Positions 75-29,817 of a stretch of 32,000 bases of DNA are shown in pieces. The notes beneath the pieces are model-generated. The model was not told the DNA's origin and ran no database searches. It saw only the letters and a program-made list of their open reading frames with translations. The stretch comes from Acidothermus cellulolyticus 11B (GTDB taxonomy: Bacteria > Actinomycetota > Actinomycetes > Acidothermales > Acidothermaceae): assembly GCF_000015025.1 (NCBI RefSeq), contig NC_008578.1, positions 1 through 32,000 of the forward strand. The letters run 5' to 3'. Position 1 is the first letter of the stretch, and every line of letters starts with the position of its first letter. Both the position numbers and the translations under genes were made by a program.

Positions 75-1517
75 ATGGCAGAGCGGGTCGCCGGCGATCC
101 GGAGCTCGCCATCTTATGGTCACGTACGGTCGATCGCCTGCAGCGCCAAGGCGATCTCTCCCCCCAGTACCAGGCATGGATCTCACTCATCCAGCCCTTG
201 GCGTTGGTCGAAGACACCGCCGTCCTCGCAGCGCCACACAGCTTTGCGAAGGAAGTTCTTGAGACCCGGCTCCGGCCGGCACTGCTCGCCGCCCTCGCAG
301 CGGAAGCCGGCCGCGAACTACGCATCGCCGTCAGCGTCGAGACACCTGCCGATGTCGCGGCCGAGACGGCATCCACCAGCACAGCGACCGAAGCCGATGA
401 CGTCGATGAGATGGACGAAGCGGCTCACGAACCAGCGTCGGGTCGATCCAGTATCGATCTTGCGAGCCAGCGGCGGGCACACGAGGCCGCTCGATTGAAC
501 CCGAAGTACACCTTCGAGACCTTCGTCATCGGAGCAAGCAATCGGTTCGCTCATGCCGCCGCTTTTGCCGCCGCCGAGTCCCCCGCCAAGGCCTATAACC
601 CCCTTTTCATCTACGGCGACTCCGGATTAGGCAAGACGCACCTTCTGCACGCCATTGGGCACTACGCGTTGAGCCTTTTCGGCAACATACGTGTCCGCTA
701 CGTGAGTTCCGAGGAATTCACCAACGACTTCATCAATTCAATCCGGGACGGAAAAGCGGAGGGATTCCGCCGACGGTACCGTGACGTCGACGTCCTCCTT
801 GTCGACGACATCCAATTCCTTGAGAACAAGGAGCAAACGCAGGAAGAGTTCTTTCACACCTTCAACACCCTGCACAACGCCAACAAGCAAATCGTCATCT
901 CGAGCGATCGGGCACCAAAACAACTGGTGACGCTTGAAGACCGGCTTCGGAACCGATTCGAATGGGGGCTCATCACCGACGTTCAACCACCGGAGCTCGA
1001 GACGCGGATCGCGATCCTCCGCAAGAAGGCGGCGCAAGAAGGCCTGGACATACCCAACGAGGTACTCGAGTACATCGCCAGCAAGATTTCCAGCAATATT
1101 CGCGAGCTGGAAGGCGCGCTGATCCGCATCAGCGCCTTCGCGAACCTCAACCGTCAACGAGTCGACCTCGCCTTGGCTGAGGTGGTCCTAAAGGACCTGA
1201 TCCCTGACAGTCAGACACCGGAGATCACCGCAGCCCTCATCATGGCGGAAACCGGTGCCTACTTCGGCGTGTCAATCGAAGATCTCTGCGGGTCATCCCG
1301 CAGCCGGGTTCTCGTCACCGCCCGGCAGGTTGCCATGTATCTCTGCCGGGAGCTGACTGATCTTTCTCTTCCGAAGATCGGCCAGCACTTTGGCGGACGG
1401 GATCACACGACGGTCATGCACGCAGACCGGAAGATTCGAGCCCTTATGGCGGAGCGTCGATCGATTTACAACCAGGTCACTGAGCTGACCAACCGGATCA
1501 AGATGCGGGCGCGATGA
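75..1517 (+). CDS. dnaA: Chromosomal replication initiator protein DnaA
   Basis: 480-aa ORF. GGAGGG at 61-66 precedes the ATG at 75. Walker [15 protein letters not shown]+ core (LLVDDIQFL, sensor motifs) and C-terminal DNA-binding domain (HTTVMHA). Canonical position upstream of dnaN. Confidence 0.97.
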
Positions 1518-1920
1518 TCCCCTGGCTCTTCCATCCGCGACAGTGTGCACAGGCTGGGGACAATCCTGTGGACGACGAGTCGACCATTGCGGAAGACTTC
1601 ACAGGATCATTGGACAAGCCGCATACGTTCTGGCCAGAATCCGCATCAACCCGCACTATCTCACGATCTTTGGTTCAATCATCCACAGAGATCGCGATGC
1701 TCAGCACCCAAGCTGAGCTGCGGAAACACACGTCGTCCACACTTTCCCCTGGACCTATGACGATGACGAACAAGATCTCACAAGGCAATACAGGACAAGG
1801 TCTTCAACCCCACAGCGCACCACGCCAGGCTCGCACGTGCCTGCCCCGCACGGGCGTAGGCTCAAGCACAACTCACCGAGCGACCCTTGTCGCGTCCCAG
1901 ATTGATCAGGCAGGTGGACA
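1518..1920. other. Putative oriC (dnaA-dnaN intergenic spacer with multiple DnaA-box-like 9-mers)
   Basis: 403-bp non-coding spacer in the position oriC occupies in actinobacteria. Box-like 9-mers with 1-2 mismatches to TTGTCCACA, either strand: 1544-1552, 1555-1563 (rc TTGTCCCCA), 1567-1575 (rc TCGTCCACA), 1609-1617, 1679-1687 (TCATCCACA), 1733-1741 (TCGTCCACA), 1913-1921. Confidence 0.75.
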
Positions 1921-3084
1921 GTGAGATTCCAAGTTGACCGAGGCCTCTTCGCAGACGCGGTCGCATGGTCGGCGCGGACGTTGCCTGCTCGTCCGTCGAT
2001 GCCGGTACTAGGCGGATTGCTGATCGAGGCGATGGACGAGCTGCGGATCGCAAGCTTCGATTACGAGGTGTCAGCCAGTGCGTCAATTGACGCGACAATT
2101 GCGGAGACGGGACGGGCGCTGGTCTCTGGGCGCTTGCTGGCGGAGATCAGCCGGAACCTCCCTGCGCAACCCGTGGACGTCGAACTCGACGGCTCCCGCC
2201 TCGTGATCGCCTGTGGGGCTTCCCGTTTCACCCTTCCGTTGCTGCCGATCGAGGAGTACCCGAACCTGCCGCCCCTGCCTACGCTCGCGGGTACCATCGG
2301 GGCTGATCTTTTTGCCACGGCTGTTTCTCAGGTCGTGGTGGCGGCCGGACGCGACGACACACTTCCCGTTCTGACCGGCGTCCGGATGGAAATTGATCGA
2401 GACGTGATGACGTTGGCGGCAACGGATCGGTATCGGCTCGCGGTGCGTGACTTTCACTGGCAGCCGGCCCGCGGCGATCTCACCGCGGCGGCGCTGATTC
2501 CAGCGCGCACTCTCGGCGAGGTTGCCAAGGCCTTGACGACCGGGGCGGAAGTGACGATCTTTTTGTCGACGGAATCGACGTCGAACGAGAATCTCATCGG
2601 CTTCTCCGGCCGTGGCACCTCAGGAGAACGGCAAACGACGACGCGCCTGATCGATGGTGAGTACGTCAAATACCGGTCACTCCTGCCGGCGGAAGCCGCT
2701 GCGACTGCACAGGTTGCGACCGCGGCTCTGATCGAGGCAGTACGCCGCGTGTCACTTGTCGCACCGCGCACGTCCCCGGTACGGCTGACGTTCAATCCGG
2801 ATCGGCTGACGCTGGAAGCCGGGACCGGCGATGACGCTCAAGCATCGGAGTGGATCGACGCGCGGTTCGAAAGCAGCACCGGCGATGACGAGTTCGTCAT
2901 TGCGTTCAATCCCGCGTATCTCCTCGATGGTCTTGGCGCGGTGGAGTCCGAGACGACGACGCTGTCGTTCACCTCACCCAACAAGCCGGCGGTCCTGCGT
3001 GCCGGGAAAGATGCGGATACGTCAGCGGATGCCGGTTCCGACGACTACCGGTATCTGCTCATGCCGGTCCGTCTTGGCGGCTGA
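1921..3084 (+). CDS. dnaN: DNA polymerase III beta sliding clamp
   Basis: 387-aa ORF with GTG start. Typical DnaN N-terminus (MRFQVDRGLFADAV...) and three-domain length. Sits between dnaA and recF. Confidence 0.96.
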   Translation: MRFQVDRGLFADAVAWSARTLPARPSMPVLGGLLIEAMDELRIASFDYEVSASASIDATIAETGRALVSGRLLAEISRNLPAQPVDVELDGSRLVIACGASRFTLPLLPIEEYPNLPPLPTLAGTIGADLFATAVSQVVVAAGRDDTLPVLTGVRMEIDRDVMTLAATDRYRLAVRDFHWQPARGDLTAAALIPARTLGEVAKALTTGAEVTIFLSTESTSNENLIGFSGRGTSGERQTTTRLIDGEYVKYRSLLPAEAAATAQVATAALIEAVRRVSLVAPRTSPVRLTFNPDRLTLEAGTGDDAQASEWIDARFESSTGDDEFVIAFNPAYLLDGLGAVESETTTLSFTSPNKPAVLRAGKDADTSADAGSDDYRYLLMPVRLGG

Positions 3085-3096
3085 CATTCACCCGCT

Positions 3097-4212
3097 GTGT
3101 ATCTGAGCCGTCTCGAATTGACCGACTTTCGGTCATATCGACGCGCCGCGCTTGAGCTCGACCCGGGAGTGAACGTCTTCGTCGGATCCAACGGGCAGGG
3201 CAAGACGAATCTCGTCGAGGCCGTCTGCTACCTGGCCCTGTTGCGCAGCCACCGGACGGCGACCGACGCGCCGCTTGTTCGGCAGGGCAGCGAACGCGCC
3301 GTCCTGCATGGGGAAGTCCTGACCTCCGGCCGCCGCATTGACCTGGATGTGGAAATCGTCCCCGGTCGGGCGAACAGACTCCGTGTCAATGGACACGCAA
3401 CCCGCCGCGCCCGGGACCTGGTCGGAATTCTGCGGGTCGTCATCTTTGCCCCGGAGGATCTCGCCTTAGTGAAAGGCGATCCCGCGGCGCGACGGGACTA
3501 TCTCGATGATGTTCTCGTGGAGTTGCGTCCGCGGCTGTTCGCCGTCCGTGCCGAGTACGAGAAGGCCTTGCGGCAGCGCAATGCATTTCTTCGTGCCGTG
3601 GCGCAGGACGGCCAGCAGGTCGATCGCAACAGCCTCGACGTGTGGAACCTGCACTTTGCGCGGGCGGCCGCGGCACTTCTCGACGCACGACGACGGCTGG
3701 TTCACGAACTGGCGCCTTTCGTCGAGAAGGCGTACGCCGCAATCTCAGGCGGCAGTGGAGCTGTTCGCCTGGAATACCGGAGCACTGTCCCGGAAGAAGT
3801 GTTGCAGGACGCCGACGAGGAGACACGGATCGCCGGTATTCTCGCCGCACTCCGCAAGGTCCAGGACGCCGAACTGGCCCGCGGGCTCACCCTCGTCGGG
3901 CCGCATCGCGATGATCTCAACTTGGAGCTGGATAGCCGCCCGGCCCGGGGTTATGCCAGCCACGGTGAGTCGTGGTCGTACGCTCTCGCGCTGCGCCTAG
4001 GGGCGTACGAGCTGCTCCGCTCGGATGGGGAGACACCGGTGATGATTCTGGACGACGTGTACGCCGAGCTGGATCAGCAGCGCAGGCGCAGGCTGACCGG
4101 ATGTGTCAGCGGAGCCGAACAATTGCTCATCACGTCAGCGGTTGACGAACCCGACCTTCCGGTCGGGCGCCGCTACGTCGTCCATGAGAGCCAGGTGCAC
4201 GTTGCCGACTGA
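3097..4212 (+). CDS. recF: DNA replication and repair protein RecF
   Basis: 371-aa ORF with GTG start. N-terminal RecF signature LELTDFRSY plus Walker A GSNGQGKTNLVEA. Walker B ILDDVYAELD near the C-terminus. Confidence 0.95.
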   Translation: MYLSRLELTDFRSYRRAALELDPGVNVFVGSNGQGKTNLVEAVCYLALLRSHRTATDAPLVRQGSERAVLHGEVLTSGRRIDLDVEIVPGRANRLRVNGHATRRARDLVGILRVVIFAPEDLALVKGDPAARRDYLDDVLVELRPRLFAVRAEYEKALRQRNAFLRAVAQDGQQVDRNSLDVWNLHFARAAAALLDARRRLVHELAPFVEKAYAAISGGSGAVRLEYRSTVPEEVLQDADEETRIAGILAALRKVQDAELARGLTLVGPHRDDLNLELDSRPARGYASHGESWSYALALRLGAYELLRSDGETPVMILDDVYAELDQQRRRRLTGCVSGAEQLLITSAVDEPDLPVGRRYVVHESQVHVAD

Positions 4213-4696
4213 TCACACCAAGTCGGCTGATCACGCCGACGGCCCGGACCTTGCCCGGGCGGCACTGCGCCGCGCTCGGGAAAGGGCTCGGCGGGCAGGC
4301 CAGCCGCCACTCTGGTCGACGCGCCGCGACCCGCAAACGTCGACTGGTGAGCCGGAACTTCTTGGTGCGTCGGTGCACCGCATTCTGCGCGACCTCGGCT
4401 GGCTGGACCGGATCACCATTACGCGCCTGGTCGATGAGTGGCCAAAGATCATCGGACCTGAGCTGGCCCAGCACTGCCGGCCGGAGAGCTACGACCGCGG
4501 CGTGCTCCACATACAGGCGGATTCGACCGCCTGGGCAACACAGCTTCGGCTTCTTCTACCGCAGTTGACCGCCCGGGTCCAGGAGGCCGCCGGCGATCTT
4601 ATTCGGCTGGTCGATGTCAGAGGACCGACCGCGCCGTCATGGCGCCACGGCCCGCTCCGGGTCCGCGGCGCCGGGCCACGCGACACTTACGGCTGA
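4184..4696 (+). CDS. DUF721 (DciA-like) domain protein, Rv0004-type
   Basis: Conserved recF-gyrB position. The ORF 4103-4696 overlaps recF. I chose the in-frame ATG at 4184, with TTG at 4202 as an alternative. C-terminal half fits the DUF721 pattern (WPKIIGPELAQHCRPESYDRGVLHIQADSTAWATQLR). Confidence 0.8.
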   Translation: MRARCTLPTDHTKSADHADGPDLARAALRRARERARRAGQPPLWSTRRDPQTSTGEPELLGASVHRILRDLGWLDRITITRLVDEWPKIIGPELAQHCRPESYDRGVLHIQADSTAWATQLRLLLPQLTARVQEAAGDLIRLVDVRGPTAPSWRHGPLRVRGAGPRDTYG

Positions 4697-4835
4697 CCAG
4701 GCGCCTCGTTCCCCACAGTCCTGAAACCGGCTGGTCACAGCGCCGCGATTTGCCATCCACAGCCTTGCTGAGCGTCTGCCATGGCCGGCTGGCGGTGAGG
4801 TACGACGTAAAATGAAAAAGACGTTTGACCGTTAG

Positions 4836-6944
<2,109 letters not shown>

Positions 6945-6982
6945 GCTTCAGCAGTTCCGACGACTGAACGAAAGGCCCATCC

Positions 6983-9487
6983 GTGACGCAGGACACCACG
7001 CTTCCCCCCGAAGGCGGCCGGATCGAACCGGTCGACCTTCAGGTGGAGATGCAGCGCAGTTACCTCGACTACGCGATGAGCGTCATCGTCGGGCGGGCGC
7101 TGCCTGATGTCCGCGATGGTCTCAAGCCGGTGCATCGCAGGGTCCTGTATGCGATGTACGACGGTGGTTACCGCCCCGACCGGGGTTACGTCAAGTGCGC
7201 CCGGGTGGTCGGGGACGTCATCGGGAGCTACCACCCTCATGGCGATGCTGCGGTCTATGACACGCTGGTACGGCTCGCCCAACCGTGGGTGATGCGCCAT
7301 CCTCTCGTCGATGGGCAGGGAAATTTCGGCTCGCCGGGTAATGACCCGGCGGCGGCGATGCGCTACACCGAGTGCCGCTTGACACCCCTTGCCATGGAGA
7401 TGCTGCGGGACATCGGGAAAGAAACCGTTGACTTCGTCCCGAATTACGACGGCCGCCAAATGGAGCCGGTCATTCTGCCGGCCCGGTTCCCGAACCTCCT
7501 GGTGAACGGATCCGCCGGCATCGCCGTCGGCATGGCGACCAACATTCCGCCGCACAATCTGCGCGAAGTGGCGGCCGGCGCCCAGTGGGCGCTGGAACAT
7601 CCGGATGCGACCCGCGAAGAGCTCCTGGCTGCCTTGCTGGAGCGGATCAAAGGCCCCGATTTCCCGACCGGGGGCGTCATCGTGGGACACGCTGGCATCG
7701 AAGAGGCATACCGCACCGGCCGCGGCTCGATCGTGATGCGGGCCGTCGTCGAGGTCGAGGAAGACGCCCGCGGCCGGCAGAGCCTCGTGGTCACGCAACT
7801 TCCGTACCAGGTAAACCCGGACAATCTCGCGGTCCGTATCGCTGAATTGGTCTCGGAAGGAAGAATCCCGGGAATCGCGGACATCCGCGATGACTCGTCG
7901 TCCCGCACCGGCCAGCGGCTCGTCATCAGCCTCAAACGGGACGCCGTCCCCAAGGTTGTCCTCGCCAATCTGTACAAGCACACGCAACTGCAGGACACCT
8001 TCGGCGCGAACATGGTCGCGCTCGTGGACAATGTCCCGCGGACGCTCTCCCTTGACGCGTTCATCCGGCACTGGGTGGCGCATCAGATCGACGTCATCGT
8101 CCGGCGGACCCGATATGACCTCCGCGAAGCGGAACGCCGGGCCCACATCCTCCGAGGCCTGGTCAAGGCGCTTGACCAACTGGACGCCGTCATCGCCCTC
8201 ATCCGCGGTTCCGCCTCTGCGGACGAAGCCCGAAGCGGCCTCATGGAATTGCTCGACGTCGACGAGGTGCAGGCAACCGCCATTCTCGACATGCAGTTGC
8301 GGAAGTTGGCCGCGCTTGAACGCCAGGCCATCATCGACGATCTGGCGAAGCATGAGGCGGAGATCGCCGATCTCAACGACATTCTCGCCAACGAATCCCG
8401 GCAACGCGCGATCGTCAGCGAGGAACTCAAGGAAATCGTTGACAAGTACGGCGATGAGCGGCGTACCGCCATCGTGCCGGCGGACGGCGACGTCAGCATC
8501 GAGGATCTCATTGCTGAAGAAGACGTCGTCGTGACCATTACGCGGGGCGGATACGCGAAACGCACAAAAACGTCCCTTTACCGTTCACAACGCCGCGGCG
8601 GTAAAGGCATTCAGGGCGCCCAATTACGGCAAGACGACGTTGTCGAGCATTTCTTCGTGACCACCACTCACCACTGGCTGCTGTTCTTCACCGACAAGGG
8701 CCGGGTGTATCGCCTCAAGGCGTACGAAATACCGGAAGCGGCACGGAGCGCGCGCGGGCAGCACGTCGCGAACCTCCTCGCGTTCCAACCGGATGAGAAA
8801 ATCGCCCAGGTCCTTGCCTTGCGGGATTACGACGCCGCGCCGTACCTCGTCCTTGCGACCCGATCCGGATTGGTGAAGAAGACCGCGTTACGGGAATTCG
8901 ACTCCAATCGCACCGGCGGCATTATCGCGATCAATCTTCGCGACGACGACGTCGTCATTGGCGCACGACTCGTCTCCCCGGACGACGAATTGCTGCTGGT
9001 GAGTCGGAAAGCGCAGGCCATCCGCTTCCGGGCCGACGACGAGGCACTCCGGCCGATGGGGCGTGCGACGTCCGGTGTCATCGGCATGCGGTTCCACGAC
9101 GACGACGCGCTTCTTGCCATGATGGTCGTCCGTCCGCAGGCCTACGTCTTCGTCGCGACGACAAAGGGATACGCAAAGCGGACGCCGATCGAGGAGTATC
9201 CGCTGCAGGGCCGCGGAGGATACGGCGTCATCACGGCGAAAATCACAGCGGAGCGCGGGGACCTGGTCGGTGCCTTGATGGTCGACGAGGAGGACGAGGT
9301 GCTCGCGATAACCGTACTGGGCGGGGTGATCCGCACCCGGGTCTCCGAAGTACGGCCGACGTCACGCGCAACAATGGGCGTCCGGCTCATGGATCTCGCG
9401 GAGAACGACGCTCTGGTCGCCATCACCAGAAACGCCGAGCGGGGCGGCGACGCCGGGATCGGCGAGGAGGAGTCACCGGCCCGCTGA
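6983..9487 (+). CDS. gyrA: DNA gyrase subunit A
   Basis: 834-aa ORF with GTG start. Contains DGLKPVHRR, the QRDR-type segment [17 protein letters not shown], active-site AAMRYTE, and C-terminal beta-pinwheel repeats. Confidence 0.97.
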
Positions 9488-9581
9488 CGGGTGCGTTCTC
9501 GCCTGACAACGGGCAGGATGGGAGGAAGCAGCCGTCCGGCGGAGGACGCCGGTCGGTGGTCGTGGCGCAAGGAGTAAGCAG

Positions 9582-10040
9582 GTGGCCGACGCCGACGTAC
9601 CTACAGCCGTGCCAGCGCGCGGCGTCTCCGCGCGGAACCCCCAGCAGCCGGCGATTCGCGTCGGACCGCCGTCCCGCGGCCGACGGCGCGCTCGGCTCGT
9701 TATCAAGCACATCGATCCGTGGACGGCGATGAAAGTGACCTTCGTCGTCAGCCTCGCGCTCCTCGTCATCGGGGTGGTGGCCGTGGCAATCGTCTACGCC
9801 GTGCTCGGCGGGATGGGGGTCTGGGATCAGATCAACAACTTGGTCAACGAAGTGGCACCGACGACAGCGAGCCAGGCGCTGCGGAATCCCTTCTCCGCGT
9901 CCCGGGTCATCACGATCACCGCAGCGGTTGGAGCGATCAATGTGATCATTCTGACCGCGCTGGCGACGCTTGGTGCGGCTATTTATAACGTGATTGCCGA
10001 TCTCGTGGGGGGCATCGAGGTGACCCTCACCGAGCCGTAG
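9582..10040 (+). CDS. DUF3566 membrane protein (Rv0007-type)
   Basis: AAGGAG lies upstream of the GTG at 9582. Arg-rich N-terminus, then IKHIDPWTAMKVTFVVSLAL and C-terminal LTALATLGAAIYNVIADLVGGIEVTLTE. Conserved position after gyrA. Confidence 0.85.
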   Translation: MADADVPTAVPARGVSARNPQQPAIRVGPPSRGRRRARLVIKHIDPWTAMKVTFVVSLALLVIGVVAVAIVYAVLGGMGVWDQINNLVNEVAPTTASQALRNPFSASRVITITAAVGAINVIILTALATLGAAIYNVIADLVGGIEVTLTEP

Positions 10041-10110
10041 TCCCCCGGCCACCGACCCCGCGGGAGGTGCCCAACGGCCCTCGGTGGATGCGGTACCCTC
10101 AGCAAGGCAT

Positions 10111-10184
<74 letters not shown>

Positions 10185-10208
10185 CTCACGTCCGAGAGAG
10201 GTGATCGC

Positions 10209-10340
10209 GTGCGGAAGGCACTCCTCGCAGTGGCGATTCTCGCCGGCGTACTGTTCATCTACCGGCGGCTGCGCGCCGCGCGCGCCGAAGAAGATCTGTG
10301 GATTGAAGCGACCCGCGCTGAGCCGGTCGGAGCGGAATAG
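10209..10340 (+). CDS. Small single-TM protein, DLW-39-like micro-ORF (43 aa)
   Basis: GTG at 10209, preceded by GAGAGAGGTGA. Sequence is VRKALLAVAILAGVLFIYRRLRAARAEEDLWIEATRAEPVGAE: one TM helix, a basic stretch, then a DLW motif. It lies between tRNA-Ile and tRNA-Ala. From memory this resembles the small actinobacterial DLW-39 family. Not verified by search. Confidence 0.6.
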   Translation: MRKALLAVAILAGVLFIYRRLRAARAEEDLWIEATRAEPVGAE

Positions 10341-10370
10341 CCGAAGAACCGGTCAGGTCGGTCACGCGAA

Positions 10371-10443
10371 CGGGGCCATAGCTCAGCTGGTAGAGCACCG
10401 CCTTTGCAAGGCGGGTGTCCGGGGTTCGAGTCCCCGTGGCTCC
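10371..10443 (+). tRNA. tRNA-Ala (anticodon TGC)
   Basis: Acceptor GGGGCCA/TGGCTCC including the G3:U70 Ala identity pair. Anticodon loop CTTTGCAAG, T-arm CCGGGGTTCGAGTCCCCG. CCA is not encoded. Confidence 0.95.
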
Positions 10444-10466
10444 ACAACCGGCGGCGGTCACGAGCG

Positions 10467-10511
10467 TAGGGCGGCCCAACTGCACCGGCGTCCAGCTGCG
10501 TGGCGGGCGGC
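10467..10511 (+). repeat. Left copy of the 45-nt imperfect direct repeat bracketing the cassette
   Basis: AGGGCGGCCCAACTGCACCGGCGTCCAGCTGCGTGGCGGGCGGCC. 40/45 identical to 12092-12136, aligned by hand. Both copies are preceded by CACGA. Begins 24 nt after tRNA-Ala. Confidence 0.85.
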
Positions 10512-10676
10512 CCTCGTGGCCAATGACTCATCGGGTATCGGCTACGCCGCCAGCGCCACAGCAGGTGGGATATTCGCCTTCGCTTCCCACTGCTTGCGGT
10601 ATGGACGCTTGATAAGTAGTACTATTTCGGTTGCAATACGTTCCTGACGGAAGACCTCAAGATCGGGATTGAAGAC

Positions 10677-11309
10677 ATGCGTCCGTTCGTGTTGCGGTTG
10701 GGTGGCGCCGCCGTCCTGTCCGTGGTCTTATCTATCGCCGTCGTCTCCGTGGCCCAGGCTGCGCCCACGCCAAGTGCCAGCGTGCCGCCTGGCGAATCAT
10801 CGGCGTCGAACGTCCTACTGCTTGGTGACGGTGACGTCACGGTCGTCCCGTCGGCTCTTCCAACGAACGTGAGTACTACAAAGCTTGTGGCCTCCTGGGA
10901 CAAAACGCTGCCCGCGCTGAAGAAGGCTCTAGCTAGCGGCGCCTCGCTGTCGACCGCACTGCAACAAGCCGGGTTGCCGGCTCTTACCGGCAGCATGGTG
11001 TCCGGAACCGTGAGTAGTGGCGGCATCCACCCCGATGGCGTATCGTGCCAGAACTGGACGTGCGGCTGGAAGTTCTCCGCACTGAGCTCGTTCGAGATTG
11101 CGTGGTTAGTCTGGGCAGGAACGATCACCGGCCCAGGTGCGATCTGCTTCTTCCTCGGCTCGGAAACCGCCGGCTTGGCCTGTACGGCGGCAAGCGCGCT
11201 GTGGGGGATCGTCAGTGCCTACGTAGATTTCCCTCCGTCCTACAATCCACACCGCTGCCTGTACATCGGGGTGGGCTGGCGCATTGTAGCGAAGTGGGAA
11301 TCCTGCTAA
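10677..11309 (+). CDS. Secreted hypothetical protein: signal peptide, Ser/Ala-rich region, C-terminal hydrophobic Cys6 domain
   Basis: 210-aa ORF. N-terminal signal peptide (basic n-region, hydrophobic core, AQA-AP cleavage-like site). All six Cys lie in the last ~90 aa. Two TTA codons, other A/T-ending codons and a TAA stop. I recognise no family. Confidence 0.65.
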   Translation: MRPFVLRLGGAAVLSVVLSIAVVSVAQAAPTPSASVPPGESSASNVLLLGDGDVTVVPSALPTNVSTTKLVASWDKTLPALKKALASGASLSTALQQAGLPALTGSMVSGTVSSGGIHPDGVSCQNWTCGWKFSALSSFEIAWLVWAGTITGPGAICFFLGSETAGLACTAASALWGIVSAYVDFPPSYNPHRCLYIGVGWRIVAKWESC

Positions 11310-11337
11310 CCGACGATCCGACGACGAGAACGGTGGT

Positions 11338-11703
11338 GTGGCGCACGTGATCCCTTCAATCCGCAGCTACTGGCGGCGCTCGTCCGCGGAACGGTTGCTT
11401 GCTCGCCGGGCGCTGGTTAGGTCGGAACCCAGCGAGTCGCGGACAATCAATGAGGCGGCCGAGGGGTGGGCGTGGTTCGCCGTTCTGCTGATCCTCGCAA
11501 TGGCCGCCGTTGTCATTGGATTCGCGGTTGACCAGGCACTGACCGCAAACCAACGCGCCATCCCGTTGTTGATTCTTGGAGCTGTGGAGATCGCGACGGC
11601 TGGCCGACTCACGTACAGCTGGGTGCGGTTTCGCCGGCGGTCCGTCGGCAAAACCACGTCCGACCTCCTACGGCAGGCATCTACCGGCAAGGAGAAACAA
11701 TGA
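11338..11703 (+). CDS. Hypothetical small membrane protein (2 predicted TM helices)
   Basis: 121-aa ORF with GTG start. Two hydrophobic segments (WAWFAVLLILAMAAVVIGFAV and IPLLILGAVEIATAG) with basic flanks. Its stop overlaps the next ORF start (ATGA at 11700-11703). Confidence 0.5.
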   Translation: MAHVIPSIRSYWRRSSAERLLARRALVRSEPSESRTINEAAEGWAWFAVLLILAMAAVVIGFAVDQALTANQRAIPLLILGAVEIATAGRLTYSWVRFRRRSVGKTTSDLLRQASTGKEKQ

Positions 11704-12020
11704 CCGAAGCGGGAAACACATATTGGGGCTACCTATGTGGCGCCTTCTACATAGCAGCGGGCCTCTTGACGGCAGGCTACGGCGTGGCGAGCCTGCATGC
11801 CGACCAAGGCCGAGCCATGCTCGCGTTGCCTGGTGGTATCGCAATCGCCATTGCCGTTCTCAGCGCGGTTCGCGAGCATTGGCGCCAAAACCACATTCCA
11901 GCAACGTCAACGATCGCCGATTTGGTCAGCGAGCGGCAGGCTACAGCCGTTACGGGGTCGGCGGAGACGGCGCGAAGCTCGACACGCCAAGTCAGTGTAA
12001 TCCTCGGCAGCGTGCATTGA
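11700..12020 (+). CDS. Hypothetical small membrane protein (2 predicted TM helices)
   Basis: 106-aa ORF. ATG overlaps the upstream stop, suggesting translational coupling. Hydrophobic segments are YLCGAFYIAAGLLTAGYGV and LALPGGIAIAIAVLSAV. Uses ATA, CTA and GTA codons. Confidence 0.5.
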   Translation: MTEAGNTYWGYLCGAFYIAAGLLTAGYGVASLHADQGRAMLALPGGIAIAIAVLSAVREHWRQNHIPATSTIADLVSERQATAVTGSAETARSSTRQVSVILGSVH

Positions 12021-12091
12021 AGAACGCGGGGCCAAGGTTCGACATGTCCGTCCCAGTGCTGGGGTGGCTGCCTTGTGGCCCTGCCCCACGA

Positions 12092-12136
12092 AGGGCGGCC
12101 CAACTGCACTGGCGTATACCTGCGTGGCGGGCAGCC
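12092..12136 (+). repeat. Right copy of the 45-nt imperfect direct repeat
   Basis: AGGGCGGCCCAACTGCACTGGCGTATACCTGCGTGGCGGGCAGCC. Lies about 70 nt beyond the stop of the minus-strand CwsA-like gene. Enclosed by a 9-bp inverted repeat, GTGGCTGCC (12064-12072) and GGCAGCCAC (12130-12138). Confidence 0.85.
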
Positions 12137-12205
12137 ACGGACGATTCGTCGCGCCCAGCTGAATGATTGCGGCGTATGCCTGCTTCAGGCCGCCGCGCGG
12201 GCGAT

Positions 12206-12655
12206 TCAGTCCGAATCGCTCTCGTCGTGCGCCACGGAAGCCGGCTGCTCCCCTGTCCCGTTCATCCCGGCGGAGTCGTCGACGCGGGGCGGCGCCGGGT
12301 AAGGCGCCAATTGCACCGGCTTCCCCGCTTGGAGAACCCAGGCCACGGCCGCACCAATGGCACTGCCGATTCCCAGGAACACCGCCGCCATCGGCCAGCG
12401 CCGGCGCGGCGCCGGTGCAACGACCGCGCCGTCCATGCCACGGAGCGCCCGGCCTACCAGGCGAGTGCGGCGTACCGCCTCTTGGCGGATCGGTCCGGAT
12501 GCCGCCTGCGCTGTCCGAACCCACGTCGCGGCCGTGGGCAGTACGCGATCGGCAACAAATGCCCGCGCGCGGTCGAGCTGGCTGGCCACTTGTTGAGCTC
12601 CACGAGCCGAGAGCTCCCGAGCAGCGGTTCCCCGGCTCAGCACACTGACACGCAT
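12206..12655 (-). CDS. CwsA-like membrane protein (Rv0008c positional and architectural equivalent)
   Basis: Start set at the ATG at 12655, preceded by GGAGGT. 149 aa. Soluble Arg/Ala-rich N-terminal part, a single C-proximal TM (WPMAAVFLGIGSAIGAAVAWVL), and a Pro-rich acidic tail. Divergent from ppiA, as cwsA is in mycobacteria. Assigned from synteny and architecture, not from a sequence search. Confidence 0.6.
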   Translation of the reverse strand: MRVSVLSRGTAARELSARGAQQVASQLDRARAFVADRVLPTAATWVRTAQAASGPIRQEAVRRTRLVGRALRGMDGAVVAPAPRRRWPMAAVFLGIGSAIGAAVAWVLQAGKPVQLAPYPAPPRVDDSAGMNGTGEQPASVAHDESDSD

Positions 12656-12859
12656 TGCCACCTCCCTCTGGTCGTCCGGTAGCTTCCCCATTCCCCAACG
12701 ACCTACCACTAATGCCTCGCCCATCGCCGAACCTGCCGGCTCGGCGGTGGTTACGGCGTACGGCGGCGTCTAGGTTCCACGGTACGTCGGCACGCTGTTC
12801 GCCGCGTGTCAAGATGGAACGCATTCGCACTGCGGGCAAGGCCCGGTACAGAGGAGATC

Positions 12860-13405
12860 ATGGTGACAGCACTGCCGGAGGCTGTTCTGCACACCAGCCT
12901 GGGTGACATCACGGTTCGGCTCTTCGCTGACCACGCACCACATACCGTGCAGAACTTCGTGGACCTTGCCCTGGGAAACCGGGAGTGGCTGGATCCCCGA
13001 TCCGGCCGGCGCGTGCACCGTTCGCTGTACAGCGAAACGGTCTTTCACCGCGTCATTGCCGGTTTCATGATCCAAGGAGGAGATCCGCTCGGCACCGGTT
13101 ACGGCGGGCCCGGCTACACCTTTGCCGACGAGCTGCATCCGGGCCTCGTCTTCGACCGGCCGTACCTGCTCGCCATGGCGAACGCGGGACCGCACACCAA
13201 CGGATCGCAGTTCTTCATCACCGTCGCACCGGCTCAGTGGCTGAACCACAAGCACACGATTTTCGGAGAAGTGATCGCCGGTACTGAGGTCGTCGAGCGC
13301 ATCGCGCAGGTTCCCACCGACGAAGCGGATCGTCCATTGAATCCGGTCTGGCTGCATTCGGTGGCGATTTCCGAGCAGGGCGGCTCGTCAGCGGAGACGG
13401 TCTAA
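12860..13405 (+). CDS. ppiA: Peptidyl-prolyl cis-trans isomerase, cyclophilin type
   Basis: GAGGAG upstream of the ATG at 12860. Cyclophilin motifs FHRVIAGFMIQGGDP, LAMANAGPHTNGSQFFIT and HTIFGEV. Confidence 0.93.
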   Translation: MVTALPEAVLHTSLGDITVRLFADHAPHTVQNFVDLALGNREWLDPRSGRRVHRSLYSETVFHRVIAGFMIQGGDPLGTGYGGPGYTFADELHPGLVFDRPYLLAMANAGPHTNGSQFFITVAPAQWLNHKHTIFGEVIAGTEVVERIAQVPTDEADRPLNPVWLHSVAISEQGGSSAETV

Positions 13406-13408
13406 GGC

Positions 13409-14272
13409 ATGGACGGCAACGGCTACGCACCGCCGGCGTCTCCCCCGACCTGCTACCGTCACCCGGACCGCGAAACCTGGGTCCGTTGTGTCCGCTGTGA
13501 TCGCGCGATTTGTCCGGATTGCATGGTCGAGGCGTCGGTTGGCTTTCAGTGCCCGGAGTGTGTCCGCCGCGGCACCCGGTCACAGGCGATCACCCGGACG
13601 GCGCTGGGCGGACGACTCCGCCCCCAGCAGACCGCCGTCACCTACCTGCTCATCGCCATCAACGCGGTGGTGTTCCTGCTCGAGCAGGTGAGCCCGCGAT
13701 TCGAGCTCCGCTATGCCCTGATTCCCGGCGAGACCGGTTTTGCGCATCCCTACGCGGGCGTCGCGGGCGGCGAGTTCTACCGGCTCATCACGGCAATGTT
13801 CCTACATGCCAGCGTCCTGCACATCGTCTTCAACATGTGGGCGCTCCTTGTCGTGGGCGCACCACTCGAGGCGCTGCTCGGCCGGTTGCGCTTCCTCGTG
13901 CTGTACTTTCTTGCCGGGCTCGGCGGCTCGACAGCCGTCTACCTTTTCGCGCCCCGCGGATCCGCCACCCTGGGCGCATCTGGAGCGATCTTCGGGCTCT
14001 TTGCGGCGTTGTTCGTCTTCGGCCGGCGGTTGAATTTCGACATCCGGCCGATCGGCCTCGTCATCGTCATCAATTTGGCGCTCACGTTTGTCCTCTCCGG
14101 CGTCAGCTGGCAAGGCCACATCGGCGGTCTGCTCAGCGGCGGTGCTCTGGCTGCCGCGTGGTCATATGCCCCTCGCGCCTGGCGGACGCCGGCTCAACTC
14201 CTCTCGTCGATCGCACTCTTGGCGATTTTGCTGATCGCTGTTGCGATCCGGACGACGCAGCTCACCGCTTGA
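13409..14272 (+). CDS. Rhomboid-family intramembrane serine protease with N-terminal zinc-ribbon
   Basis: 287 aa, starting 3 nt after ppiA. N-terminal CxxC...CxxC...CxxC. Rhomboid motifs HxxxN (LHIVFNMW), catalytic GASGAIFG and GHIGGLLSG. Multiple TM segments. Confidence 0.9.
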   Translation: MDGNGYAPPASPPTCYRHPDRETWVRCVRCDRAICPDCMVEASVGFQCPECVRRGTRSQAITRTALGGRLRPQQTAVTYLLIAINAVVFLLEQVSPRFELRYALIPGETGFAHPYAGVAGGEFYRLITAMFLHASVLHIVFNMWALLVVGAPLEALLGRLRFLVLYFLAGLGGSTAVYLFAPRGSATLGASGAIFGLFAALFVFGRRLNFDIRPIGLVIVINLALTFVLSGVSWQGHIGGLLSGGALAAAWSYAPRAWRTPAQLLSSIALLAILLIAVAIRTTQLTA

Positions 14273-14297
14273 CGGTGCTCGTCGCCGGCTTCTCCCT

Positions 14298-14345
14298 CGC
14301 GCGATCGCGGCTGACTGGTCCCCCGCGCGATCGCGGCTGATTTTC
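14298..14345 (+). terminator. Candidate intrinsic terminator for ppiA-rhomboid
   Basis: CGCGCGATCGCGGCTGA occurs at 14298-14314 and 14324-14340. Each copy contains the perfect palindrome CGCGATCGCG, so the two copies can also pair as a long GC stem. TTTT follows at 14341-14344, 26 nt downstream of the rhomboid stop. Confidence 0.45.
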
Positions 14346-14357
14346 GCGTGCGACACG

Positions 14358-14389
14358 TTGTCCCCAATGTGGACAACCGCTGTGGAGAA
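14358..14389. promoter_or_regulatory. Cluster of three DnaA-box-like 9-mers; two of them form a 7-bp hairpin
   Basis: TTGTCCCCA (14358-14366), TGTGGACAA (14368-14376, rc TTGTCCACA, a perfect consensus match) and TGTGGAGAA (14381-14389, rc TTCTCCACA, identical to the box at 31-39). The first two form GTTGTCC-ccaatgt-GGACAAC. Confidence 0.4.
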
Positions 14390-14415
14390 TTACGTCGGTG
14401 TAGTTTCCCGACACG

Positions 14416-14673
14416 TCATCGCCACTGGGTCGCGAGACCCAGCCCGATGACCAACAGTCCAAAACCTTCGATCAGATTGCCCGCCTGACCACCGAGGACG
14501 TCCATTCCCGGGAATGTGTACTGGGTCACGTACCCGATGACCAGCCAGATCACACCGACGATCAAGCAGGCGACCATCGTGGGGGCAAGCCACGGCGGGC
14601 TGACCCGCTTCTTCGGCGAGCGGGTCGGTGGTGGGATGTAGTCCACCGTTTTGCGCACCCGAGATTTCGGCAC
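14416..14673 (-). CDS. crgA: Cell division protein CrgA
   Basis: 85 aa. GTG start preceded by GGGAGGG. N-terminal MPKSRVRK, a basic region, and two TM helices (WLAPTMVACLIVGVIWLVIGYV and GFGLLVIGLGLATQWR). Confidence 0.9.
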   Translation of the reverse strand: MPKSRVRKTVDYIPPPTRSPKKRVSPPWLAPTMVACLIVGVIWLVIGYVTQYTFPGMDVLGGQAGNLIEGFGLLVIGLGLATQWR

Positions 14674-14702
14674 GATCCAGCCCTCCCGGCGGAGACTGAT
14701 AG

Positions 14703-14718
14703 GCGAGGTTCACCTCGC
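14703..14718. promoter_or_regulatory. Palindrome GCGAGGT-tc-ACCTCGC in the crgA/DUF881 divergent region
   Basis: Perfect 7-bp arms, 30 nt upstream of the crgA start. The half-site ACCTCGCGG recurs at about 14776-14784. Confidence 0.3.
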
Positions 14719-14803
14719 GGTCATGACGGCTTCGCTCTGGCCGCTAGCGTAATCGCGGTGCTCAACGCAGCGGAAGTGACCTCGCGGAAGGGGTGAGCCG
14801 CCG

Positions 14804-15595
14804 ATGCGGCGGACGACCGGCTGGCGGGTCGGCGTACCTGTCGTTGCCGCCCTCGCGGGGCTTCTCTTCGCGACCTCCGCGACGACCGCGCACGGCGCCG
14901 ACCTACGGGTGATCGGCCGGAGTGACCTCGCGGATCTGGTCGCACGCATGCAGCGCACGGTGAACGGTGAGACCAAGAAGTTGGCCGCGCTGCAGCAGCG
15001 GGTTCGTGATCTCACTGACCAGGCTGCCCGCACGGATGGTCGCGTCGCGCAGCTTCGGACGGCTGCGGATGAGCTGGCGGGCAGTGTGGGTCTGCGACCG
15101 GAGACCGGTCCCGGTCTCATCGTGACCTTGGACGACGCTCCGCCGCTGCGCGGTGCGGCAGCGAACGCCGTCCCCCCGGACTACCTCGTCGTTCACCAGC
15201 AGGACATCCAGGCCGTGGTCAATGCGCTGTGGGCTGGCGGCGCCCGCGCAATCAGCCTGCAAGGCAAGCGCCTCGTCGCCACCAGCGCGGTGCGCTGTGT
15301 CGGCAACACCCTGCTGCTGGAGGGTGTGGTGTATTCACCCCCTTACGTGATCGCCGCTGTCGGCGACCCGGATCGACTCCGTGCGGCGTTGGATGCCGAC
15401 CCCAACGTGACGATCTATCGTCAGTACGTGGCCGCCTACCATCTGGGTTACCAGGTTCGCACCGCCCAGCACCTCACGGTTCCCGCGTACGACGGAAGCC
15501 TGACCCTCGTCCACGCCGCGGTGCTGCCGCCGCAGACCGGCGGTCAACCCCCCCGAACTCCTGCTGCTCCACTCGCCGGCGGGTCGTCGCCATGA
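14804..15595 (+). CDS. DUF881 domain membrane protein (Rv0012-type)
   Basis: 263 aa. N-terminal TM, coiled-coil-like segment, and DUF881-like core (GPGLIVTLDD, LVVHQQDIQAVVNALWAGGARAISLQGKRLV, PYVIAAVGDP). Divergent from crgA, as in other actinobacteria. Confidence 0.85.
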   Translation: MRRTTGWRVGVPVVAALAGLLFATSATTAHGADLRVIGRSDLADLVARMQRTVNGETKKLAALQQRVRDLTDQAARTDGRVAQLRTAADELAGSVGLRPETGPGLIVTLDDAPPLRGAAANAVPPDYLVVHQQDIQAVVNALWAGGARAISLQGKRLVATSAVRCVGNTLLLEGVVYSPPYVIAAVGDPDRLRAALDADPNVTIYRQYVAAYHLGYQVRTAQHLTVPAYDGSLTLVHAAVLPPQTGGQPPRTPAAPLAGGSSP

Positions 15596-16341
15596 CCCGC
15601 ACGCTGCAGAAATCACCGGTTACCACGATCCGCGGCTCGGCGCCCCGGCGGGTCCTGGGAGTGGCGGGGGAAATTCTCATCACCCTGGGCGTGGTCGTGC
15701 TTCTCTTTGTCGGCTACGACTTGTGGTTCACCGGGCTGTACACGGCATCGGCGCAGCGCGAGCTCAAGCACGAGCTTGCGATTACCTGGCAGACCGCGAC
15801 GGCGAATCCGGCTCCGCCGCCTGCCCCGTCGGCCGTGCCGAGTCCCGATGGGGTGCTCCCGGACGACGTCGTGCCGGGCAATGCGCTCGCACTCATCCGT
15901 ATTCCGCGGCTGGGCCGGCACTACGTGTACGCCATTGTCGAGGGTGTCTCGACTGCGGATCTCAAAAAGGGACCGGGTCACTACCCGGGGACCGCCATGC
16001 CCGGCCAGGTGGGAAATTTTGTCGTGTCCGGGCACCGCACGACGTACCTCGCCCCGTTCAACGGCTTGGACAAGTTGCGCCTCGGTGATCCGATCGTCAT
16101 TGAGACGGCGACAATGTGGTACGTCTACCGCGTCACTCAGATGGAAACGGTCTTGCCGACCGATGTCGCCGTCATCCTCCCGGTCCCCGATCACCCGGGT
16201 GAACGGCCGACCGAAGCCCTTATCACTCTCACGACCTGCACCCCGAAATACTCCGCGTCCCACCGGCTCGTCGTCCACGGCCGGCTCGAAACGGCTCAGC
16301 CGAAATCCGCCGGAATCCCGGCGGTGCTGCGGGAGGGATGA
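15592..16341 (+). CDS. Class E-type sortase (transpeptidase)
   Basis: ATG at 15592 overlaps the DUF881 stop (ATGA). N-terminal TM. Catalytic His region FVVSGHRTTY, Cys motif LITLTTCTP, and a downstream Arg (HRLVVHGRL). The track ORF from 15229 is an upstream extension in the same frame. Confidence 0.9.
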   Translation: MTRTLQKSPVTTIRGSAPRRVLGVAGEILITLGVVVLLFVGYDLWFTGLYTASAQRELKHELAITWQTATANPAPPPAPSAVPSPDGVLPDDVVPGNALALIRIPRLGRHYVYAIVEGVSTADLKKGPGHYPGTAMPGQVGNFVVSGHRTTYLAPFNGLDKLRLGDPIVIETATMWYVYRVTQMETVLPTDVAVILPVPDHPGERPTEALITLTTCTPKYSASHRLVVHGRLETAQPKSAGIPAVLREG

Positions 16342-16345
16342 GCTC

Positions 16346-16606
16346 ATGTACGGCTGGCTCTGGCGGAAACTGCCCGGTGGCGCGGCGGAGAAAATCCTCA
16401 GCGTGACGCTGCTGGCGGCGGCGTTTCTCGCGCTGCTCTTTTTCGTCGTCTTCCCCTGGGTGGAGCCGCGGCTGCCGTGGAACGACGTCACGATCACCTC
16501 ACCGCGGCCGCACAGTTCCTCAGCCGCTGCGTCGCCGGCAGCCTCACCGACGCCGTCCGCCGGCTTCCCGCCTGACGGCGGACCCTCGGCTGGGTCGGGA
16601 CGCTGA
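16346..16606 (+). CDS. Small membrane protein downstream of sortase (86 aa), Ser/Pro/Ala-rich tail
   Basis: ATG lies 4 nt after the sortase stop, preceded by GGGAGGGA. Contains MYGWLWRKLPGG, then one TM (LLAAAFLALLFFVVFPWV). Its stop codon lies inside the 31-bp tandem duplication. Confidence 0.55.
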   Translation: MYGWLWRKLPGGAAEKILSVTLLAAAFLALLFFVVFPWVEPRLPWNDVTITSPRPHSSSAAASPAASPTPSAGFPPDGGPSAGSGR

Positions 16607-26808: not shown

Positions 26809-26836
26809 CGCTCTCCGCTCGATGTTCGGGAGTTCT

Positions 26837-29221: not shown

Positions 29222-29817
29222 CGAATTCCTCGTCTCGGGACGGTTCGCTTCAATCTTCTCCAGAAGGTTCGGTGCGCCGTCGAGCGGGGTCGCATAATGA
29301 GCCGCAGCTGCAACGCGGTGTCCGACTCGCAACGGCGGGTTTCTTTGGCAATGCTTGTGCTGACCGTTTCAGGTGAGGGGCGGCGTATGCCCCCGTGCGC
29401 TGACAACGCTTGCCGCCGCTGAATTCTTGATGGCTAAAGTGAGCCTTTCCTTTCCGGCATTGCGCCGATCGTGCACGCGGGGTTGGATATGGGGAAAGGT
29501 GCATCACGCCAGCTGCCGCCTGCGTGGATTTTCGCCCGGACAGCCGCCGACTCTCGGCGCTGCTCTTTGGAAATGTCGAGGACACATGCCTCCGTGTGCC
29601 CACGGAGCACAATGGCGTCTCAGCAGCAATTTCGGCGTACGGCTTCCCGGTTAGCTGCCGCCTAGCGGTTGAGACGGGTTCGCTCATCCCGCCGAGGACG
29701 GTGACCAGGGTCTGGCTGGGAGTGCGTCGACGGGGTCGGTCCATCCATCCCGCCGAGGACGGCAAGCGCGCAACGCGCGCGGTTAGTGAGCACCGCGGCT
29801 CGTAAGGGATTCCCCGG
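29222..29817 (-). other. Long (~600 bp) non-coding region upstream of the ATPase, with internal repeats; candidate leader or ncRNA
   Basis: No convincing ORF in any frame. Locally lower GC (for example 29340-29460). Perfect 17-nt direct repeat CATCCCGCCGAGGACGG at 29685-29701 and 29746-29762. 11-mer AGCTGCCGCCT at 29510-29520 and 29653-29663. GC hairpin GCGCGC-aac-GCGCGC at 29766-29780, just after the upstream lipoprotein gene. Confidence 0.5.

Follow-up and report, generated by a model that had tools for sequence, protein, structure and literature searches.

Why do three genes for hypothetical proteins lie between tRNA-Ala and a cwsA-like gene near the replication origin of Acidothermus cellulolyticus 11B, where in Mycobacterium tuberculosis (Rv0007-Rv0009) the tRNA-Ala gene is followed directly by cwsA? 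The DNA analysed here, called the window, comprises 32,000 nucleotides (nt) of the replication-origin region (contig NC_008578.1, positions 1 to 32,000 of the forward strand), and the three open reading frames (ORF1, ORF2 and ORF3) form a cassette within it. The cassette is a strain-variable 1.6-kb island flanked by imperfect repeats, of which both occupied and empty alleles exist. Taken as a whole, we consider it likely that the island carries a toxin-immunity operon and was brought by a tyrosine-integrase element. An earlier reading of the same DNA, made without database searches (the sequence-only reading), had proposed a small insertion with an att-like duplication; the present analysis adds to it the empty-site alleles, the toxin-immunity reading of the cargo and a relative of the cassette in an integrase-bearing element.

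A direct repeat and an empty site beside tRNA-Ala

The features of the locus are the following, with lengths of proteins in amino acids (aa):

10372-10445, plus strand: tRNA-Ala(TGC), left landmark of the insert
10465-10512: repeat copy 1 (attL-like), which begins 20 nt past the end of tRNA-Ala
10605-10640, plus strand: AT-rich stretch upstream of ORF1, about 39% GC against 65% for the window
10677-11309, plus strand: ORF1, 210 aa, with a Sec-type signal peptide, a linker and a C-terminal Cys6 domain; TAA stop
10677-10760, plus strand: signal peptide of ORF1 (aa 1-28), a hydrophobic N-terminus ending in AQA
11037-11306, plus strand: Cys6 domain of ORF1 (aa 121-210), common to the C-termini of RHS proteins
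11338-11703, plus strand: ORF2, 121 aa, two hydrophobic segments, candidate primary immunity protein
11700-12020, plus strand: ORF3, 106 aa, two hydrophobic segments, candidate accessory immunity protein
12089-12136: repeat copy 2 (attR-like), between the convergent ORF3 and cwsA-like genes
10513-12136: indel unit of 1624 bp (the cassette and one repeat copy), equally drawable as 10465-12088
12206-12724, minus strand: cwsA-like gene (Acel_0011), right flank, outside the insert

The two copies of the direct repeat are 48 nt long and identical at 42 of the 48 positions, with a start-to-start spacing of 1624 nt; only 165 nt separate copy 1 from ORF1. Aligned locally, they score 66, whereas shuffled sequences average 18.3 (sd 2.7, maximum 33), and the similarity is confined to the 48 nt, with nothing further outside. 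A 23-mer common to both copies has two occurrences in the window, where 0 are expected. The sequence-only reading had described repeats of 45 nt (40/45 identical), each preceded by CACGA. The repeat is real, but its full extent is 48 nt and the second coordinate was one base out of register, while CACGA abuts AGGGC in copy 2 and lies 4 nt further upstream in copy 1. In a metagenome collection, a 20-mer of the repeat matched only two contigs, both of them this locus, so that the repeat is not a dispersed element; nor does the 48-mer occur in the Acidothermaceae relatives searched, where no repeats bracket any of the corresponding intervals. The locus-specificity on which the sequence-only reading depended is thereby borne out. 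Two other identities were considered for the 48-mer. As a small-peptide gene it is open in one frame in both copies, with three of seven changes synonymous, and this was dropped because the frame would begin inside tRNA-Ala. A dif/XerCD-type site was ruled out by eye: the 48-mer is unlike dif, and the cassette lies at the origin, not at the terminus.

The empty site was found in three contigs (L088, L089 and L090, from runs SRR12718350, SRR12718342 and SRR15214128), the first through a variant of the cwsA-like protein (P0019, 97% identical) and the other two through a further variant (P0025). In all three the order is tRNA-Ala, 16 nt, a single 48-mer and the cwsA-like flank, and the 1624-bp unit present in 11B-type strains is absent. 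The spacer between tRNA and repeat is 19 nt in the window against 16 nt in the empty-site strains, which are without a 3-nt GGC. These contigs are about 95-98% identical to the window, the 9-kb L089 being 97.3% identical over 8.5 kb, and window positions 10132-10512 and 12089-13997 both align to L088, overlapping in exactly one 48-mer. A single repeat copy is exactly what the sequence-only reading had predicted for an unoccupied site. Within the species, the cassette stands between the same flanks in at least 12 contigs, with 0-1 single-nucleotide polymorphism (SNP); the cassette-bearing strains share identical flanks, some of them with 1-2.4% difference in nearby DNA.

At four of the six positions that vary between the copies in the window (3, 22, 29 and 31) the single 48-mer agrees with copy 1, and its right flank is that of copy 2. 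This pattern would fit a crossover within positions 32-44, a block of 13 nt without differences, and would fit integration (attB x attP) and later excision or deletion equally well. Of the 31 positions in the left arm of copy 2, 4 depart from the empty-site copy, more than the strain divergence of about 3% and as expected of a foreign arm derived from attP. We infer gain rather than loss of the cassette in 11B.

Divergence among the strains is uneven along the region. Contig L005 matches window positions 646-11697 at 97.6% over dnaA-gyrA and at 100% from 8970 onward, and L088 shows 23 mismatches to the window in 12137-12533 and none in the next 845 nt (aligned over 12137-13391). Such mosaic divergence among A. 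cellulolyticus strains suggests recombination tracts or chimeric metagenome contigs.

The region was retrieved with the DUF3566 protein from 15 Acidothermaceae genomes. In all 15, nucleotide homology to the window ends exactly at the tRNA-Ala 3' end and, where the contig includes the cwsA-like gene, resumes only within its coding sequence; ORF1-3 are in none of them. Eight of these relatives' contigs reach the cwsA-like gene, and in them different genes fill the interval, over 1.5-3.3 kb. The closest Acidothermus metagenome-assembled genome, for example, has an O-methyltransferase, a LuxR-type regulator and a lipoprotein there, and others have an aldo-keto reductase or a Clp_N-repeat protein. 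The accessory status claimed for the cassette agrees with this finding that distant relatives hold other genes here, and with the homologous three-gene cassettes found elsewhere, one of them in an integrase-bearing element.

The Cys6 domain and its neighbouring genes

The three genes (probably Acel_0008 to Acel_0010, judging from locus numbering) have the make-up that the sequence-only reading gave them, namely a secreted Cys6 protein followed by two translationally coupled membrane proteins of two segments each. The cysteines of ORF1 are residues 124/129/157/169/194/210, and ORF3 overlaps ORF2 by ATGA and has the ribosome-binding site AAGGAGA. The low GC content reported at 10605-10640 is equally real. 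This stretch may be the promoter region, with TGGACG-N17-TACTAT as an example picked by eye; a sigma-70 promoter scan gave nothing there. Window positions 10595-10650 align loosely with the upstream regions of two related cassettes (L091, 7090-7150, and L087, 260-330), and this part could be a promoter or operator common to the cassettes.

Among 5.8 billion clustered proteins, three are relatives of ORF1, and a profile search of 1.84 billion representative proteins gave 16 matches. Most members are about 200 aa long with a signal peptide, and all six cysteines are conserved across the family. The Cys6 domain follows a Sec signal peptide in ORF1 itself, in P0003-P0008 and in P0011. In contrast to these free-standing proteins, P0012 (1451 aa) and P0014 (1807 aa) are actinobacterial RHS proteins (Pfam RHS_repeat) whose last ~90 residues are the Cys6 domain, and P0013 is a fragment of an RHS end with the same tail. 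In P0012 the junction reads DPSGQ, 16 residues and DPNGL, with the Cys6 domain, which begins GFHCQDWTCGW, directly after it; P0013 reads GSDPLGL and then a linker, and in P0014 the motif is degenerate. One C-terminal domain is thus joined to different N-terminal carriers (Sec signal or RHS), the arrangement that marks polymorphic toxins, and in P0012 and P0013 it lies after DPxGL, where the toxin of Rhs carriers starts. In Rhs toxins the released toxin is the segment after DPXGL and immunity is encoded by the next gene (PMC9637101). The position of the domain in the RHS proteins leads to the polymorphic-toxin reading of ORF1.

The genes next to the domain travel with it. A homologue of ORF2 directly follows the Cys6 domain in six of six loci (the window, L011, L013, L085, L086 and L091), and a homologue of ORF3 is found in four of the six (the window, L011, L085 and L091). 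In L085 an RHS gene has ORF2 and ORF3 homologues after it, which overlap by ATGA just as ORF2 and ORF3 of the window do, and in L086 an ORF2-like two-segment protein comes after the RHS gene. L011, L013 and L091 have free-standing ORF1 homologues, each with an ORF2 homologue after it; in L011 and L013 no repeats bracket the cassette. The next gene therefore accompanies the C-terminal domain whatever its carrier, and this linkage, independent of context, is an immunity-gene signature. Most likely, as far as sequence relationships indicate, the Cys6 domain is a polymorphic-toxin module and ORF2 and ORF3 are its candidate membrane immunity genes.

As to the mode of action, no catalytic motif was predicted in ORF1. 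The AlphaFold model of the Cys6 domain alone predicts two long hydrophobic helices with a beta-hairpin on either side; the model of full-length ORF1 is unusable (pLDDT 39.9). The absence of a catalytic motif, the hydrophobic helices and the membrane location of the immunity candidates together point to a membrane-directed toxin. ORF1 would be exported by Sec and its disulfide-capable hydrophobic domain would act on the membrane of competitors, through pore formation or depolarisation, and the small membrane proteins ORF2 and ORF3 would protect the producer.

Searches of ORF1-3 against Pfam, NCBIfam, PHROGs and PADLOC gave nothing above threshold. For the Cys6 domain, a PDB sequence search gave no match and the best Foldseek hit in the PDB had E = 1.7 and a TM-score below 0.4. 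Relatives of ORF1 were found in none of the viral contigs, phage records or plasmid records. The curated libraries thus leave all three proteins unmatched, but the statement of the sequence-only reading that none of them is recognisable no longer holds, as ORF1 ends in a polymorphic-toxin domain. ORF2 has sub-threshold similarity to SLATT two-transmembrane effectors (Pfam E = 0.077, NCBIfam E = 0.0083), which probably reflects the shared two-helix topology only.

What were three hypothetical proteins near the origin of replication in a model actinobacterium, thermophilic and cellulolytic, thus become a candidate toxin-immunity system. The domain would be a new and very rare candidate C-terminal toxin domain, with 16 members in 1.84 billion representative proteins and without a Pfam or PDB relative, common to Sec-secreted and RHS proteins and accompanied by candidate cognate immunity proteins.

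Integrase elements and the origin of the cassette

A profile search with ORF2 led to a 969-kb contig of another actinobacterium (L091) in which the cassette lies within an element. There a tRNA-Leu(taa) at 4770-4856 is followed at 8999-9053 by a 55-nt repeat of its 3' part, 98% identical. The DNA between the two encodes a tyrosine integrase and an HTH_17 Xis-like protein, includes a pSAM2-type RepSA gene of which a C-terminal fragment is left, and carries the three-gene cassette, whose products are 54%, 54% and 41% identical to ORF1, ORF2 and ORF3. The segment 4770-9053 is a 4.2-kb decayed pSAM2-like actinomycete integrative and conjugative element (AICE), with the cassette as its only cargo. 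The cassette does, therefore, travel on integrase elements.

Integrase DNA is also found at the site itself in relatives of A. cellulolyticus. In L015 the stretch past the orthologous tRNA-Ala (10909-16558) encodes a complete tyrosine integrase, a TrwC relaxase/helicase and a PLD-type nuclease, with a duplicated integrase fragment adjoining the tRNA; in L019 an integrase C-terminal remnant lies there, at 8232-8996. With the other cargo described above, this makes the DNA after tRNA-Ala a recurrent integration hotspot in the family. A separate observation concerns the RHS locus of L085 (5956-7813), where a XerC/D-type tyrosine recombinase (Phage_int_SAM_1, Phage_integrase) lies about 165 nt past the two immunity-like genes.

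We propose that a tyrosine-integrase element of the kind that integrates in actinomycetes carried the cassette into 11B or otherwise moved it, by recombination of a 48-nt attB-like site with a similar attP. The module of integrase, Xis and Rep would since have been lost, or would be supplied in trans, and a circular excised form would carry the junction ...CCCCACGA-48-mer-CTCGTGGCC... Involvement of an integrase at this site is an inference from these comparisons. A stronger version, in which the integrase-less cassette still excises and integrates at the 48-nt site by means of a tyrosine recombinase encoded elsewhere (in the host chromosome or a resident AICE), seems to us distinctly unlikely.

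Several observations weigh against the proposed reading. As the sequence-only reading had noted, the window has neither integrase nor transposase: a Pfam scan of its large ORFs found none, and tblastn of the whole window with the integrases of L091, L015 and L085, with Xis and with RepSA gave no match below E = 0.2. Since tRNA-Ala ends at 10445 and the repeat begins at 10465, there is no overlap with the tRNA 3' end, and the repeat is therefore not a classical tRNA att site; in other respects the insertion with att-like duplication proposed earlier is supported. The longest identical run between the copies is 18 nt. The single copy of the empty site is no clean one-crossover hybrid, as position 28 agrees with copy 2 and position 45 with neither copy, and there is one private change. 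Composition (GC, GC3, codon adaptation, rare codons) does not mark the cassette as foreign. The G+C content of third codon positions (GC3) is 0.74, 0.74 and 0.66 in ORF1, ORF2 and ORF3 against 0.72-0.82 in core genes, the codon adaptation index (CAI) is 0.57-0.62 against 0.63-0.73, and the share of rare codons is 3.0% against about 1.3%; the cwsA-like gene, itself a core gene, departs just as far (CAI 0.58, rare codons 4.7%). The codon argument of the sequence-only reading, weakly true as it stands, does not hold for this reason. On the side of the toxin, the ORF1 family is tiny and its toxicity is predicted only, the domain model has moderate confidence (pLDDT 79.7), the hydrophobicity of the domain is moderate (Kyte-Doolittle peaks of about 1.6), and ORF1 has no delivery domain beyond the signal peptide.

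Four other accounts were weighed against the proposed one. The cassette could be ancestral to the species, with a sister lineage having lost it, either by site-specific excision or because the two repeats recombined, through homologous or slipped recombination. We regard this as somewhat unlikely, the least so of the four. The hybrid single copy observed is just what a crossover in positions 32-48 would leave, all cassette-bearing strains share their flanks even where nearby DNA differs, and the nearest outgroup, L014, does not polarise the event. However, loss leaves the 48-nt duplication around the genes unexplained, so that an earlier insertion is still needed; the identical run of 18 nt is short for RecA-dependent recombination, and the layout of the empty site is the same as the mycobacterial arrangement of tRNA-Ala and cwsA. 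The empty site might be an assembly artefact, with collapse across the repeat, and the assemblies are indeed of short reads, with each variant on one or two contigs. We find this scarcely credible, because the same junction appears in three runs, with their own consistent SNPs and along alignments as long as that of L089. The Logan pipeline works with k = 31, and the 18 identical bases shared by the 11B copies are too few to collapse such a graph.

The remaining two accounts concern what the parts of the locus do. That the 48-mer functions as a hairpin (for instance to terminate transcription or to bind a protein) and not in recombination is suggested by where the copies sit, after a tRNA gene and between convergent genes, as expected of terminators, and by the GC-rich hairpin of -39 to -42 kcal/mol into which each can fold. 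This we judge improbable: in both copies and on both strands the folding is no better than in shuffled controls (z = 0.01 to -1.68), a promoter and terminator scan found no T-tract at the copies, an Rfam scan of the window found only the two tRNAs and no family for the 48-mer, and the outer stems differ between the copies. Moreover, if the duplicate had a purely functional role, one would not expect an empty site in which the flanks meet precisely at a single copy. As for the three proteins, ORF1 might be secreted for a structural or signalling role, with ORF2 and ORF3 as its partners in the membrane, the link to RHS proteins being a non-toxic C-terminal module. The missing catalytic motif, the lack of any toxin-family match in Pfam, NCBIfam, PADLOC and the PDB, and the predicted status of the toxicity would agree with it. 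It is nevertheless unlikely, as toxin domains are defined by their place after DPxGL in RHS proteins (PMC9637101), the tight and context-independent linkage to the same small membrane-protein genes is a signature of immunity, and the genes ride a mobile element that has no other cargo. An integrase-borne toxin-immunity island remains our preferred reading. Whatever its route, the pair of occupied and empty alleles is material for studying how small integrase-less cassettes insert beside actinobacterial tRNA genes, and bears on a possible advantage of the cassette between Acidothermus strains in hot composts and springs.

Surrounding genes and known systems

The genes of the origin region lie in this order:

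Left part: dnaA, dnaN, recF, a DciA-family gene, gyrB, gyrA and a DUF3566 gene (9582-10040)
Middle: tRNA-Ile, a 43-aa ORF, tRNA-Ala, ORF1, ORF2 and ORF3
Right part: the cwsA-like gene, ppiA, a rhomboid gene, crgA, a DUF881 gene and a sortase gene
10111-10185: tRNA-Ile
10209-10340, plus strand: 43-aa ORF with a hydrophobic segment, between tRNA-Ile and tRNA-Ala

The cwsA-like protein is identical to Acel_0011. Pfam and NCBIfam gave no match for it, and its identification as CwsA comes only from its position and a C-terminal membrane segment; among 5.8 billion proteins it has two homologue clusters at E <= 1e-10. The 43-aa ORF is kept at 54-83% amino acid identity in nearly all Acidothermaceae loci covering the position and has a weak match to DUF5326 only; a protein-coding gene retained between two tRNA genes is unusual. 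Further away, a P-type ATPase with a C-terminal hemerythrin domain (26837-29332, minus strand) and a large Kelch-repeat protein (24805-27024, minus strand) are encoded by ORFs that overlap at their ends, and one start codon is probably mis-set. The ATPase-hemerythrin fusion of A. cellulolyticus has been described previously.

Among known toxins, the closest parallel in mode of action would be Tse5-CT/Tsi5 of Pseudomonas aeruginosa, a likeness by analogy and not of homology. The Rhs effector Tse5 ends, after DPXGL, in a domain that forms pores; its immunity protein Tsi5 lies in the cytoplasmic membrane, with two transmembrane regions predicted (PMC9637101). Similarly, the Cys6 domain ends RHS proteins, directly after DPxGL in P0012, has no enzymatic motif and has long predicted hydrophobic helices, and the next gene encodes a small two-segment protein. 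In contrast, ORF1 has no RHS cage, no PAAR domain and no signal for a type VI or type VII secretion system; with its Sec signal only, it resembles a free secreted bacteriocin. It also has six conserved cysteines, the domain often has two candidate immunity genes, and the host is a monoderm thermophilic actinobacterium.

The comparison with AICEs is of a similar kind. AICEs range from 9 to 24 kb in size, and the cassette, at 1.6 kb, is far below this. The same three genes are the cargo of the decayed AICE of L091, and in the window direct repeats flank the cassette beside a tRNA gene, with a single copy kept at the empty site. The AICE examples cited in the literature are of 10.9-17.3 kb, their attB sites overlap the tRNA 3' end and their att identity segments are described as identical (PMC2440964), whereas the repeat of the window starts 20 nt past the tRNA, its copies are only 88% identical, and only ORF1-3 lie between them, without integrase, Xis, RepSA-type replication or FtsK-like transfer (Tra) genes. 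An insertion sequence or transposon is a poorer comparison, as there is no transposase, no inverted repeat was found at the ends of the insert, and the duplication is 48 nt against the usual short one (2-15 bp).

Integron cassettes and integrative mobile elements exploiting Xer (IMEX, which use XerCD) are also small promoter-plus-gene units without a recombinase of their own, with a recombination-site-like repeat of which one copy stays at the empty site. Integron cassettes end in an attC imperfect palindrome and have IntI and attI close by; in the window there is no integrase, no IntI or attI lies near the cassette, and the hairpins of the repeat are no more stable than those of shuffled sequence. 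If the cassette were mobilised in trans, it would be an actinobacterial counterpart of integron cassettes and IMEX, spreading an undescribed membrane-active Cys6 toxin fold from strain to strain. In its parts the cassette belongs to known kinds, toxin-immunity cassettes and remnants of integrative elements, and not to a new kind of system.

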